40,350 nt of DNA from Oopsacas minuta (Eukaryota; Animalia; Porifera), in NCBI GenBank assembly GCA_024704765.1, contig JAKMXF010000066.1, forward strand, positions 378,499 through 418,848, written 5' to 3'. The notes under the pieces were generated by a model. That model was not told the origin of the DNA. It saw only the letters and a program-made list of their open reading frames with translations, and did not search any database. This document shows positions 17,465-27,333 of this stretch, one piece after another. Position 1 is the stretch's first letter; each line of letters starts with the position of its first letter. The position numbers and the translations under genes were made by a program.

Positions 17465-19093
17465 TCAATTTGCCAAGTTCTTCACTATTACTATATACTT
17501 TCTCATTGAATATTCTATCCATGATGATCCAAGCTCAAGTCTAGATTGCAATCCAGGATTCTTTGAATCAAATTCCCTCAAATATTCTAAATTATATTCA
17601 AACATTTTATTATACTTGTTTGTGTCAACATCCCATCCTTTAAATGTAGATTTCATTTTGAAGTAATGTGGATATACCAGGTGAAGATAGTAGAGAATCA
17701 GGAGAGTTGATATGAAATTCTGAATATTTGAGTACATTTTAGTACCCAAAGATTTGGCTCCTTTATCGATCAATTCTTGATTTACGAGTTCTATAATTGA
17801 AAAGTCTTTTGTGGAAATTGCGAAATGTAAATCTTGTAATTTGAAGTAGTTTCTGTCATCTTTAAGCTTGATTAATTCCGTTAGTAATTCTTTCAAGGTT
17901 ATACTCTTCTTTCTTAATACAGAGATTATTTCTTGTAAATCTGTCTGGTCGGTCTTGGAAGTTATTTCTAGATATTTCTTTCCCTTTTTAACATCTTTCT
18001 TAACTGCTTCCCCACCCCAAAATATGTGTTCTACTTCTGACTTTTTCATACCGCGTCCGTTCCTTGCGCTAGTAAAAGTGGTTAACTCTTTACCGTTGAT
18101 GGATTCTGAAATATTAATGTCTAATGATAAACCATTAGTAACTGTGAGTTCGGGAAATTTAGGACTATAACTTGGAGATCTATGGCTATAGCTCGATGAT
18201 ATAGGAGTATAGCTTGGCCTGCTTGGAGATGTAGGAGTATAGCTTGGAGAAGTAGGACTATAGCTTGGAAATCTTGGAGAAGTAGGACTATAGCTTGGAA
18301 ATCTTGGAGAAGTAGGACTATAGCTTGGAGAAGTAGGACTATAGCTTGGAGATGTAGGACTATAACTTGGAGAAGTAGGACTATAGCTTGGAGATGTAGG
18401 AGTATAACTTGGAGAAGTAGGAGTATAACTTGGAGAAGTAGGACTATAGCTTGGAGATGTAGGACTATAGCTTGGAGATGTAGGACTATAGCTTGGAGAT
18501 GTAGGAGTATAACTTGGAGATGTAGGAGTATAACTTGGAGAAGTAGGAGTATAACTTGGAGAAGTAGGACTATAGCTTGGAGATGTAGGAGTATAACTTG
18601 GAGAAGTAGGAGTATAACTTGGAGAAGTAGGACTATAGCTTGGAGATGTAGGAGTATAACTTGGAGATGTAGGAGTATAACTTGGAGAAGTAGGAGTATA
18701 ACTTGGAGATGTAGGAGTATAACTTGGAGAAGTAGGAGTATAACTTGGAGATGTAGGAGTATAACTTGGAGATGTAGGAGTATAGCTTGGAGAAGTAGGA
18801 CTATAGCTTGGAGATGTAGGAGTATAACTTGGAGAAGTAGGACTATAGCTTGGAGATGTAGGAGTATAACATAGAGAAGTAGGACGATAGCTTGGAGATC
18901 TTGGGCTATAGCATGGGGAAGTAAGACATTGATCAAAGGAGGAAAATAGATAGCTTTTATGTAAAGCAAGTTGCTGCTCATATTCTTCAACATTCACATC
19001 TTCATCTCCTCCTAATCTTTCGTTATTATTCACGGTTACATCCACTTCTGATATTAAAGAGTCTACATCGTAATTTCGTGGTGTTTCTCCTCT
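17465..19093 (-). CDS. Family member 5: protein with about 41 consecutive Pol II CTD-type heptads ([14 protein letters not shown]) followed by a 290-aa region ending in the family C-terminal domain
   Basis: A 1.6-kb uninterrupted ORF. The heptads are encoded by 21-bp repeats at about 18180-18900. The C-terminus ([32 protein letters not shown]...[22 protein letters not shown]) is homologous to the C-termini of the four genes at 19.3-30.0 kb. There is no in-frame ATG at the N-terminus. The frame opens immediately after an acceptor-like ttttattctag| at 19094/19093, and the track start at 19045 is a GTG. Confidence 0.7.
18180..18900. repeat. Tandem 21-bp coding minisatellite (about 34 units) encoding the CTD-like heptads of family member 5
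   Basis: ggagaagtaggactatagctt / ggagatgtaggagtataactt units seen directly. On the minus strand they read TCT CCA AGC TAT AGT CCT ACT (= S P S Y S P T). Confidence 0.9.
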
Positions 19094-19322
19094 CTAGAAT
19101 AAAATACATAAGTACAGCGTACTCCAAATAAGACGAACTGTACAAATGTCGACGGCCCTTGATGTATTATCGATTTCGACGATTATTACATATTATTTAC
19201 TATGCACAAATTTACTTTTACTTTCTAATACATGTATTACTTGAATCACACAGATATGGAACGTAATAGTCTGTAGAATAGGATACCAATGTAAATCTAG
19301 TATCTAATAATTAATCAATAGT

Positions 19323-24625: not shown

Positions 24626-24918
24626 TTAATGATTTACAAAACATTACATTTTATTTTACTGATATACTTGCAGAACTACAGTTACCCCCAACTATGATAA
24701 ATGACGAATGTGTTCTAATTGTGGCTTAATTATTTCTGATATTTATACCGTATTTATATAGAGAGATGTTTAATCTAGGAAAACTGAACATACATAAATA
24801 TATACAACAACTTATTGTTTTTCATCTTGCGTAAATATGCTAAACTAGAACAAACAAATAACTAAATGAGTCATTTAGGATTTCTGGGTAGAAAAGATAT
24901 GGTTAATAACTCAATGAA

Positions 24919-27333
24919 TCAAATTGCAACTTTGATTCGTTTTTCAGCATACTGCATCCAAGAAGTAGCAAGATCAAGTCTGGAAGAGAGAGAAGGATTC
25001 TGTTTATTGAAGGTACGTAGAAAGGAGAGAGCCTTATCTCCAGCTGGTTTCCATCTAGGAGGTATGATGGTCCAGGAGATGAAGGAGGGAGACATCTCGA
25101 AGCTCTTAGGATAGACAGTGTGTAGGAACATGAATAGTATCAATGTAGGTATGAATTGTAGTAGCTTTTTGTATACTGATACTCCTAGTGACTTTACTCC
25201 ACTCTCTTCTATCTCTGTTTCTATTTGTTCTGGAGACATAAGTAGAAAGGAATGTATTATACTCAGATTTGATATCTCCCAACTTCCTTCTTCACTCTGT
25301 AGGAAGAATATTTCTTCACTTATCTTGTCTATATCCGGTGGTTCTACCAATTCTAGCTCTGATTTATAATCATCTAGATCCAGAGACTCATCTGAGCTGC
25401 TATCGCTATCTGGCTCTTCTATCCCATCATCTATCATGTTAAGCAGATGTCCAACTTTAAACAACTTACTTTGATTCTGTAACTGATCAGCACGTTCCTC
25501 TAATTGATCCAGCATACAACCTCTTTTGAGAACAGAATGCAAATTTAACCTAGTTTGAGCCTGAACTTTGAATAGTTCATCTTCCATATCTTTCTTTTCT
25601 GAAACTTCCATTCTTGCCTTGCGTTTTCGCTCTTTGGGTTTGGGTGCTGAGGATCCACCTGCAGCATGACCTTCCATGCTATCGAACCCTTGAAATAGTT
25701 GTGCGGCCTGCATCTGGGGTGGAGGAGAAGAGCTTTTCTGAAGTAGATTCAAAGAACGACGTTGGTTGGTGACTTGTAACTTTAATGCTGTCAATCCACC
25801 AGGAGGAGAAAGACGAGCCTTACTGGCACCTGGTGGACGCGGTAGGGAGAATTTAGTTCGAGATGTCTCAGATAATTTGGGGGAATGCCTATATTCAGAA
25901 CTCAACTCCGAAATAGTGTCTACTATTCGTTCTCTGGATTCTATTGAATCGAGACACACAGTCTGTTTTTTCATTTCCTTATCTACTGATTGAACTTCCT
26001 TTTTCAGAGACTTTGTAACTCCACCACCAATACTTCTAAACGGTTCCATAAACGTAAAGCCACTGAAATCTATTTCGTTCTCTTTTGATTCCTCCATGGT
26101 AATTTCCCTAACGAGATTGCCGGGAACAACTCTCTCCCTCTCCCTCTCCCTCTCCCTCTCCCTTTCCCTCCCCCTATCCCTACGAACAGCATTAGAACTT
26201 CCAAAAGAACTTAATTCATCTAATAATATTTCATCATCTTCAGGTAAAGGTATACTAATTGCTTTAGTAAATTCTTCGTCAAAATTGCGTAACAATTCTT
26301 TATCAATTGTTACTTCGGGAGGAAGTAGAGCTGGCATTTCTAACTCTTGTTGTTTTTGTGTGGTAGCTGGGGTAATATACGTTGAATACAAGTCATGCTT
26401 TGAAGCAAGGAAATCTTTATAAGCCTTTGCTCCATCTCCACCATCTGCATCGAAAAAGGCTGACCTATCTTCATCCGATCCCCCTCCTCCATCTGCTTCT
26501 TCTATGAATGCGAATTGTCCTTGTAAATCTGGCATATTTGTGAGACATTTTCTCAACATGATTTCATCATTATATTCTTTTAGAGGTGATTCTATAAATG
26601 CAGGATCTATTGGTTCAGCTGGGAAACTCTCGGAGGAGGAGGAGGAAGGTATCATTGCACACATTCCACCTCCAAAATATTCTGATGATGGTTTCATTGT
26701 AGTTACTACTTCTTTAGTTATAGGTTGTCTAACTGTAGGTTCAAGAGGGTTCTTGAGTGTTAGGATTCCTCTCTTACTCATAGCTTCATCTCCTACGTAT
26801 TTGTCTTTCTGTCCCATACCTACCATAACTCCCATGTGTCTAGGTCTACCTACAACAGGAGGGAACAGAACTCTAGGTGCATCGTCTCCAGAGAAACCAG
26901 CTCCTATCTTCCATCCACCTATATCTATAACGATAGGACAAGTCTCATCGTCTGAAGAGTCTGGAGAGGAACAAGATTGATGAGTGGAGAGGAACTGATT
27001 AAGTATAACTGATTGTAAGGGTGTTATGGGGAGAGAAGTGGTAGAGAGTTGTTGATTAAGTTGATTGATTTGTGAGAGAGTATTGTCAGCATTAGTTGAT
27101 AGATCTACCTTGACTAGTGAAGAGTTAGTTTGATATATTAGTTCAGCAGCTTGCATATACAGATGTCGTTGTATGTAATCTTGTATTGAGGATAGAGTCA
27201 GTTCCAACCTCAAAGGATTCCAGGGGTACACCTGAAGGAGATACCACCTGTAACTATTTGGTTTATATTGAGCATTGTGATCATCAAGAATATTAATTAA
27301 TCTCCAATTTATTGAGCTAATTTGTGCACGCAC
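24919..27333 (-). CDS. Family member 3 (804 aa): N-terminal domain + actin fragment + (RE)n tract + R-SNARE-like half-motif + family C-terminal domain
   Basis: A 2.4-kb ORF. Same actin fragment as member 1. [17 protein letters not shown] is encoded by the (CTCTCC)n tract at about 26140-26180. ...[37 protein letters not shown] resembles VAMP TQAQVDEV...LSELDDRADALQAGASQFE. No in-frame ATG near the N-terminus. A conserved acceptor-like ccttcag| lies at about 27232/27231. Confidence 0.75.

Follow-up and report, generated by a model that had tools for sequence, protein, structure and literature searches.

The stretch of DNA analyzed here (the window: 40,350 nucleotides of contig JAKMXF010000066.1 from the glass sponge Oopsacas minuta, positions 378,499 to 418,848 of the forward strand) carries on its minus strand the exons of a vault PARP (PARP4) gene and, downstream of them, five large tandem open reading frames (ORFs), called members 1 to 5 in the following. 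A first-pass annotation, made from the sequence alone, had pointed out that members 1, 3, and 5 have no in-frame ATG near their N-terminus and open immediately after a polypyrimidine-AG, and had offered three explanations: a start codon donated by a trans-spliced leader, a short 5′ coding exon hidden in the gaps between the ORFs, or non-AUG initiation. Our data point toward a different solution, in which the five ORFs are very probably alternative last exons of the PARP4 gene itself.

The shared PARP4 exons

The window has a G+C content of about 37% and is eukaryotic in character, with GT-AG introns. On the minus strand, nine GT-AG exons can be joined to a spliced model of 1299 codons without stops, which starts with MRIFEHCHF and ends with ...ALEIAKEQ. 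When the transcript-derived Vazella pourtalesii protein P0121 was searched against the window by tblastn, nine colinear high-scoring segment pairs were obtained, which run from 36501 to 30731 with 75-92% identity. Exon 1 (35392..36501, with the ATG at 36501-36499) encodes the BRCT domain and the PARP regulatory region (Pfam BRCT and PARP_reg) and aligns with residues 1-374 of P0121 (82% identity). Exon 2 (34403..35112) encodes the PARP catalytic domain (Pfam PARP, E=4.7e-29); the motifs LFHSS, GIYFA, and NEYVVY are readable in its part of the translated spliced model, and we take them to be the catalytic H-Y-E triad, judging from the known motifs of PARP1. The VIT domain (Pfam VIT, E=2.1e-27) is located on exon 3 (33792..34212), and BRCT, PARP regulatory, PARP catalytic, and VIT domains are found by Pfam in the canonical PARP4 order. 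They are followed by exon 4 (33272..33499), exon 5 (32787..33110), with which the putative vWA region starts, exon 6 (32237..32515), exon 7 (31657..31896), exon 8 (31117..31452), and exon 9 (30734..30982), all of them part of the spliced model. The Pfam VWA profile did not match the exon ORFs of the window, but weak matches to VWA and VWA_3 are present in the orthologous Vazella ORF, which is 90% identical.

Exon 9 is the last shared exon. It ends with ...EIAKEQ, and its donor (GAG CAG/gtcagg, GT at 30733-30732) is in phase 0; the AKEQ/gtcag donor is also found in Vazella and in a further glass-sponge genome, L010. A perfect (ATT/ATA)n microsatellite of about 20 units (30669-30727) starts 6 nt past the donor, inside intron 9. 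No MVP gene is present within the window.

Five tandem ORF blocks downstream of exon 9

Five large ORF blocks follow in tandem on the minus strand (27501-29993, 24919-27333, 22259-24625, 19323-21821, and 17465-19045, the last one being open back to 19093), separated by gaps that we measured at 229-437 nt and that had been estimated at 170-440 bp. All of them begin at a pyrimidine-rich (C/T)AG in phase 0 with the exon-9 donor, and therefore, each could be joined to exon 9; each also has its own stop codon. Counted from these acceptors, the putative terminal exons are member 4 (27501..29939; ctttcctacag/GTC, 812 codons, TGA stop), member 3 (24919..27231; tctccttcag/GTG, 770 codons), member 2 (22259..24571; tctccttcag/GTG, 770 codons), member 1 (19323..21821; ttttccttcag/GTG, 832 codons), and member 5 (17465..19093; ttttattctag/AGA, 542 codons).

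The sequence contexts on which the first-pass annotation had based its puzzle are exact, that is, ttttccttcag/GTG TAT CCC TGG in member 1, ccttcag/GTG TAC CCC at 27231 in member 3, and ttttattctag/AGA GGA GAA at 19093 in member 5, where the TAG serves as acceptor AG and as in-frame stop at once. Some of its counts have to be adjusted. The in-frame TAA of member 1 lies six codons upstream (five sense codons separate it from the GTG) instead of five, and the first in-frame Met of members 1 and 3 is codon 26 instead of 27, while in member 5 it is codon 349 and thus indeed hundreds of codons away. The ORF of member 3 is open for 36 codons further upstream (to 27333), and there is no ATG in that stretch. 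Member 2 does have an ATG upstream, as had been reported; in-frame ATGs are located 16 and 18 codons before its GTG, its first in-frame Met counted from the GTG is codon 110, and the in-frame upstream ATG at 24625 is probably incidental. Members 1 and 3 do share a conserved N-terminus with member 2, but that of member 5 is unrelated.

A strong acceptor-like motif, defined as YAG preceded by at least 8 pyrimidines in 10 positions, occurs at 0.24% of window positions, yet in four blocks it coincides precisely with the ORF/conservation boundary, and the fifth block has 7/10 pyrimidines; this is more than chance. Furthermore, within 150 nt upstream of members 3 and 5, no in-frame AG other than the named one reads through openly.

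The members differ in what follows the acceptor. Members 1 to 3 share a leader (V-Y/E-P-W-N-P/L-L-R-L-E-L-T...), then an actin fragment, and then variable low-complexity sequence. The actin fragment matches positions 2-66 of the Pfam actin profile, including a D-loop-like stretch (21330-21539 in member 1), and is conserved in five hexactinellid genomes and in a gene model of the demosponge Ephydatia muelleri. Such an isolated N-terminal fragment cannot fold as actin alone. Matches below the Pfam gathering score were obtained for a synaptobrevin/R-SNARE-like stretch in member 3 (25456-25593, 24.7 bits), for a WH2-like motif in member 2 (23366-23434, 20.7 bits), which is accompanied by a proline-rich region, and, weakly, for a synaptobrevin-like stretch in member 4; two proteins of the relatives (P0004 and P0006) carry a precomputed synaptobrevin match. 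Member 4, which consists of low-complexity sequence apart from this stretch and its C-terminal domain, resembles the PARP4 C-terminal region of other animals. Member 5 contains about 32 tandem units of 21 nt (18222-18899) that encode heptads like those of the RNA polymerase II (Pol II) C-terminal domain (CTD), and a second frame is also open there (ORF 18121-18993). A hexanucleotide repeat that encodes (RE)n is located in member 3 at 26132-26181.

In contrast to their middle segments, the ends of the blocks are alike. All five close with a conserved domain of about 130 aa, which is divergent in member 5. In a single-sequence search, the C-terminus of member 3 matched residues 1574-1698 of human PARP4 (E=7.9e-5), and a PDB profile search with nine C-terminal domains matched residues 1574-1702 (E=2.2e-13). 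The proteins of the relatives carry the precomputed Pfam assignment PF26156 (PARP4_MVP-ID). From these similarities, the conserved C-terminal domain is identified as the MVP-interaction (vault-targeting) domain (MVP-ID) of PARP4.

Conservation of acceptors and leaders among glass sponges

Five genomes were compared: the window, L001, L002, a Vazella contig merged from L003 and L004, and L010. The same exon arrangement recurs in all four further genomes, with at least five to seven terminal exons per relative. In the more divergent L010, a ...GIAKEQ/gtcagg donor is followed by five exons of the type ...atttctccag/GTGGATCC. In the window, L001, and L002, the array closes with the CTD-type exon, and in each of the four genomes in which exons of this type were seen, a pyrimidine-rich TAG stands directly before their first codon. 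Across the five genomes, all 20 leader-type exons start at a pyrimidine-rich CAG/GTG, and an in-frame ATG ahead of the nearest upstream stop is present in only two of them. It takes 26-135 codons to reach the first in-frame Met, the position of which is not conserved (codon 26, 110, and, with member 5 included, 349 in the window; 63-135 in the relatives).

Sequence conservation ends at the acceptor. Identity to the consensus is 88% at positions +1 to +45, 63% at −30 to −1, and about 50% at −60 to −31, and within the last 30 nt before the exon, only cttcag is conserved at ≥80%. Many copies have a CTAAC-like sequence 20-25 nt upstream of the acceptor. More generally, a ttacag or CTAAC-like element (ctaaactgttacag / aactaacag) precedes the acceptor by about 15-25 nt in many paralogs of the window (27231, 24571), Vazella, L001, and L002. 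This element is likely to be the branch point; it also creates a second AG, which is out of frame. The spacing between the upstream ttacag and the conserved cag/GTG is 16 nt in the window and in L002, 15 nt in Vazella, and 14 nt in L001, and because it varies in this way, the segment in between is non-coding. The opposite holds for the sequence behind the acceptor. Over the first 37 leader codons, most of which precede any Met, the ratio of non-synonymous to synonymous substitution rates (dN/dS) is 0.2-0.36 in most between-species pairs, and Vazella and L001 differ there by 6 synonymous and 0 non-synonymous changes. Since dN/dS reveals purifying selection, the leader region is translated in this frame.

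A conserved ATG seemed to be present in homologues listed among the proteins of ENA assemblies ('MEPWNP...', 'MDPSNP...'), but this was ruled out; the DNA reads GTG every time. The N-terminal M is an artefact, because a prokaryotic-style gene caller writes a GTG start as M. In the public metagenome catalogues (P0001-P0020, from L001, L002, L003, L004, and L010), these eukaryotic exons are listed as separate 'genes'. In L010, the interval between PARP4 exons 8 and 9 contains a long minisatellite (2076-3545), whose open TCTYMCSY-type repeat ORF has been called as a 'gene' of 485 aa.

Transcript evidence from Vazella pourtalesii

P0121 (TRINITY_DN1161_c0_g1_i9, 1912 aa) gives direct support for splicing. 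Its first 1295 residues are PARP4 (BRCT, PARP regulatory, catalytic, VIT, and vWA); beyond them, the protein continues as ...SIEVALDVAKEQ/VEPWNP..., that is, across an AKEQ/VEPWNP junction into the leader, and on through the actin fragment to the C-terminal domain. In the tblastn search against the window, residue 1295/1296 aligned with the starts of members 3, 2, and 1 (27234, 24574, and 21824). On the Vazella contig, P0121 matches with 94-100% identity; exons 1-9 are located at 5395-10990, the best match of the actin-type exon is at 25387-27240, and the transcript skips at least one complete member-4-like exon (11315-13501) that has its own stop and MVP-ID. Hence, a cDNA in which conventional upstream exons supply the ATG exists in a close relative of O. 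minuta, with nine PARP4 exons ahead of the junction. Taken together with the conservation of the acceptor across species and the collapse of identity just upstream of the AG, this transcript supports the reading of the polypyrimidine-AG as a genuine 3′ splice acceptor, in line with the acceptor-like character noted in the first-pass annotation.

The isoforms of TRINITY_DN1161_c0_g1 (P0021, P0121, P0122, and P0144) combine the exon body of one paralog with the 3′ end of another (...AEKQF and ...RINNAL versus genomic ...RIKSNLRID), which suggests that the assembler has built chimeras across the MVP-ID regions, these being nearly identical. The protein clusters of the Vazella ORFs, when looked up, yielded only a 3′ fragment, i7. 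Independent support comes from E. muelleri, in which one gene model (Em0023g479a) unites BRCT-PARP, the actin fragment, and the MVP-ID in one protein that is colinear with the isoforms predicted here. At its end, the Vazella contig repeats the terminal exon that has transcript support in inverted orientation (L003 14813-16675 versus 10001-11863), and a CTD-type exon is truncated where the sequence turns around. An assembly foldback is the probable cause; a true inverted duplication is less likely.

Neighborhood of the array

Beyond the array, the window contains an ORF for a cation-efflux (ZnT-like) transporter with a long His-rich loop (14381-16066, minus strand), a conserved ORF of 191 aa with no assigned function (16420-16995, minus strand), and a homologue of DNA polymerase eta with a UBZ finger (3002-5080, plus strand), each of which looks like a single large exon. 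In L001, synteny extends to the transporter and the 191-aa ORF, and in L002, the array is likewise followed by the transporter. A tRNA-Asp (GTC) gene at 13191-13263 (plus strand) is the sole Rfam/ARAGORN match in the window.

Discussion

In sum, we consider it very probable that the ATG-less ORFs are not separate genes but large alternative 3′-terminal exons of one glass-sponge vault-PARP (PARP4) gene, with the start codon in PARP4 exon 1. In our model, nine constitutive exons (36501..30734, minus strand) specify the protein from BRCT and the PARP regulatory region through the PARP catalytic domain to VIT and the putative vWA region and end in a phase-0 donor, behind which lie five tandemly duplicated 3′-terminal exons of 1.6-2.5 kb each. 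Every terminal exon opens with a conserved branch-point-like sequence, a polypyrimidine tract, and a phase-0 AG acceptor; the middle segment differs from exon to exon and consists of an N-terminal piece of actin, of Pol II CTD heptads, of stretches with a weak resemblance to SNARE or WH2, or of low-complexity sequence; and each exon closes with its own MVP-interaction domain and stop codon. Joining of the exon-9 donor to one acceptor per transcript would then give rise to PARP4 isoforms with the same enzymatic N-terminus and a different linker/cargo region, with predicted lengths of 1841-2131 aa if exons 1-9 are combined with each of the five blocks. The choice of the last exon may be made as in other alternative-last-exon genes, by competition of splicing to a distal acceptor with cleavage/polyadenylation at the proximal exon. 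Because translation would begin at the exon-1 ATG (36501), which lies 9-17 kb upstream of members 3, 1, and 5 and would be common to all members, none of them would need an ATG of its own.

The exon structure, the phase compatibility, the conservation of the acceptors, the purifying selection on the ATG-less leader codons, and one spliced Vazella transcript form the established part of this model. The same splicing presumably takes place in O. minuta itself. All five terminal exons would be used; for the member-4 and member-5 types, this is predicted from their intact ORFs, conserved phase-0 acceptors, and intact MVP-IDs, and it is an extrapolation in particular for the joining of member 5 to exon 9. 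Pseudogenized duplicates were ruled out on the basis of the ORF lengths (542-832 codons), the conserved MVP-ID, and a between-species dN/dS below 1.

Several observations weigh against the model. Transcript support comes only from the relative V. pourtalesii and consists of one junction-bearing transcript, in which exon 9 is joined to a leader/actin-type exon; junctions to member-4-type and member-5-type exons were not observed among the Vazella transcript proteins. A search spanning the junction and one with the shared exons 8-9 gave only short ENA ORF fragments and no further junction transcript. In addition, the Vazella paralogs are near-identical at both ends and the Trinity isoforms mix their 3′ ends, and it is therefore uncertain which of the actin-type exons is joined to exon 9. 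A scan for canonical polyadenylation signals found AATAAA/ATTAAA after members 4 and 3, only a poorly placed one (at +418) after member 2, and none after members 1 and 5. Finally, the ORFs of i12 and i14, two further isoforms from Vazella, are 'complete' and begin with the first internal Met of the exon (MKAGFSGDD...), as would fit unspliced or independently initiated transcripts, and two leader-type exons, window member 2 and one paralog in L002 (L002:10016), do have in-frame ATGs upstream.

The last two points are also what speaks for the view that the members are, or are in addition, independent genes with promoters in the 229-437 nt gaps, starting at the first internal Met or, in member 2, at the upstream ATG. 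We regard this as improbable. The codons before the first Met, whose position varies, are under purifying selection; 18 of the 20 exons have no upstream ATG at all; the acceptor is conserved and the sequence upstream of it is not; and ORFs such as those of i12 and i14 are just what an ORF caller yields on intron-retaining pre-mRNA. Independent transcription with internal initiation may nevertheless exist as a minor mode. A conserved acceptor with non-conserved sequence upstream would suit an outron as well, and hence the acceptors could be trans-splice sites at which a spliced leader ending in AUG provides the start codon, as in flatworms. Spliced-leader trans-splicing has been reported in hexactinellid sponges (PMC7986045), and in Aphrocallistes vastus, a leader of about 37 nt is found on about 4% of long cDNA reads (PMC10282587); trans-splicing is thus infrequent in the only glass sponge in which it was studied. 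At the members, nothing points to an AUG donated by a leader. The Vazella transcript is cis-spliced from PARP4 exon 9 at exactly this acceptor, at the protein level no Vazella isoform ORF starts with a leader-derived Met directly before VEPWNP, and each of the five acceptors matches the phase of the exon-9 donor, so that a donated start codon appears highly improbable.

Equally hard to uphold is a short ATG-bearing 5′ coding exon that has gone unnoticed in each gap. A candidate can be constructed for member 3, where ATGAA/gtgatt (27348-27342), joined to ttacag/G at 27247, reads in frame, but such a joint would make coding a segment whose length of 14, 15, or 16 nt in different genomes shows it to be non-coding. 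Moreover, the roughly 50% identity upstream of position −30 leaves no conserved ATG-bearing block, and in L010 and Vazella, stops occur 5-15 codons upstream with no ATG; a conserved mini-exon is not found in the gaps. Initiation at the conserved GUG, the last of the proposals made from the sequence, has the invariance of this codon in its favor: GTG is the first codon of 20/20 leader-type exons even though dS between species is 0.5-0.8. A good initiation context has a purine at −3 according to the Kozak rules, whereas C stands at −3 in 20/20 copies, and members 4 and 5 open with GTC and AGA, neither of which is a near-cognate codon. The invariance can be explained as well by the G at +1 after an AG acceptor and by gene conversion among the paralogs, and the spliced transcript reads the codon as an internal Val. 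Non-AUG initiation is therefore unnecessary, does not apply to member 5, and has, in our view, a next to negligible chance of being correct. With alternative last exons of PARP4, the start-codon puzzle itself turns out to be ordinary; what is unusual is the cassette architecture of PARP4.

How unusual it is becomes apparent from a comparison with known systems. Like human PARP4 (vPARP), the sponge protein combines BRCT, PARP regulatory/WGR, an H-Y-E catalytic domain, VIT, a putative vWA region, a long disordered linker, and a C-terminal MVP-interaction domain. In contrast to the human gene, linker and MVP-ID are laid out as five tandem, presumably mutually exclusive terminal exons, and several of these hold pieces of other host proteins (actin residues ~2-66, Pol II CTD heptads, and weak SNARE-like/WH2-like stretches). 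Our literature searches on PARP4 found no description of multiplied, interchangeable linker/MVP-ID cassettes. The closest parallels in splicing are calcitonin/CGRP and immunoglobulin mu, in which one donor likewise faces several acceptors and each exon lacks an ATG and carries a stop codon of its own, together with a poly(A) site that is presumed for the sponge exons. The sponge gene differs from them in having at least five paralogous choices of 1.6-2.5 kb, each re-encoding the same C-terminal domain, and also in that usage is seen for one exon type only, in a relative. Protocadherin alpha/gamma and UGT1A resemble it in joining one of several tandem, large, paralogous exons to a constant part, by which the protein is diversified, but with reversed polarity: their variable exons are 5′, each with its own promoter and ATG, and the constant exons 3′, whereas the sponge gene has its constant part on the 5′ side and its variable exons on the 3′ side. 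The flatworm spliced-leader AUG is similar insofar as ORFs begin right after a 3′ acceptor without an ATG and the lineage is reported to trans-splice; unlike there, what the Vazella transcript shows is cis-splicing from PARP4 exon 9, and ORFs initiated by a leader are not seen.

For annotation, our findings are a warning, since exons of this kind would be mis-called as an intronless gene family. They also remove an apparent anomaly, as neither leader-donated nor non-AUG starts are needed to account for the members.

In mammalian PARP4, one large exon encodes the disordered stretch that connects vWA with the MVP-binding domain, and this stretch is a hotspot of positive selection, which has been read as a host-pathogen interface (PMC4038475), and this positively selected linker is the same region as the one that varies in the sponge gene. 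It is imaginable, though at present no more than a tentative idea, that glass sponges, and perhaps sponges generally, vary the pathogen-facing linker of the vault PARP by means of a battery of terminal exons, and that fragments of host proteins that are often targeted (the actin N-terminus with its D-loop, the Pol II CTD, a SNARE motif, and a WH2 motif) are tethered in or on the vault, each by the MVP-interaction domain of its exon, as integrated decoys or baits for pathogen effectors or as built-in substrates or recruiters for the PARP domain. A role of the cassettes as decoy, bait, or substrate display is speculation. If true, the decoy reading would be the isoform-level counterpart of the positive selection in the mammalian PARP4 linker. 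To our knowledge, the function of vaults has remained unknown since the discovery of the particles. Cassettes that are fused to a vault-targeting domain may lead to concrete, testable hypotheses on what the vault PARP binds or displays.

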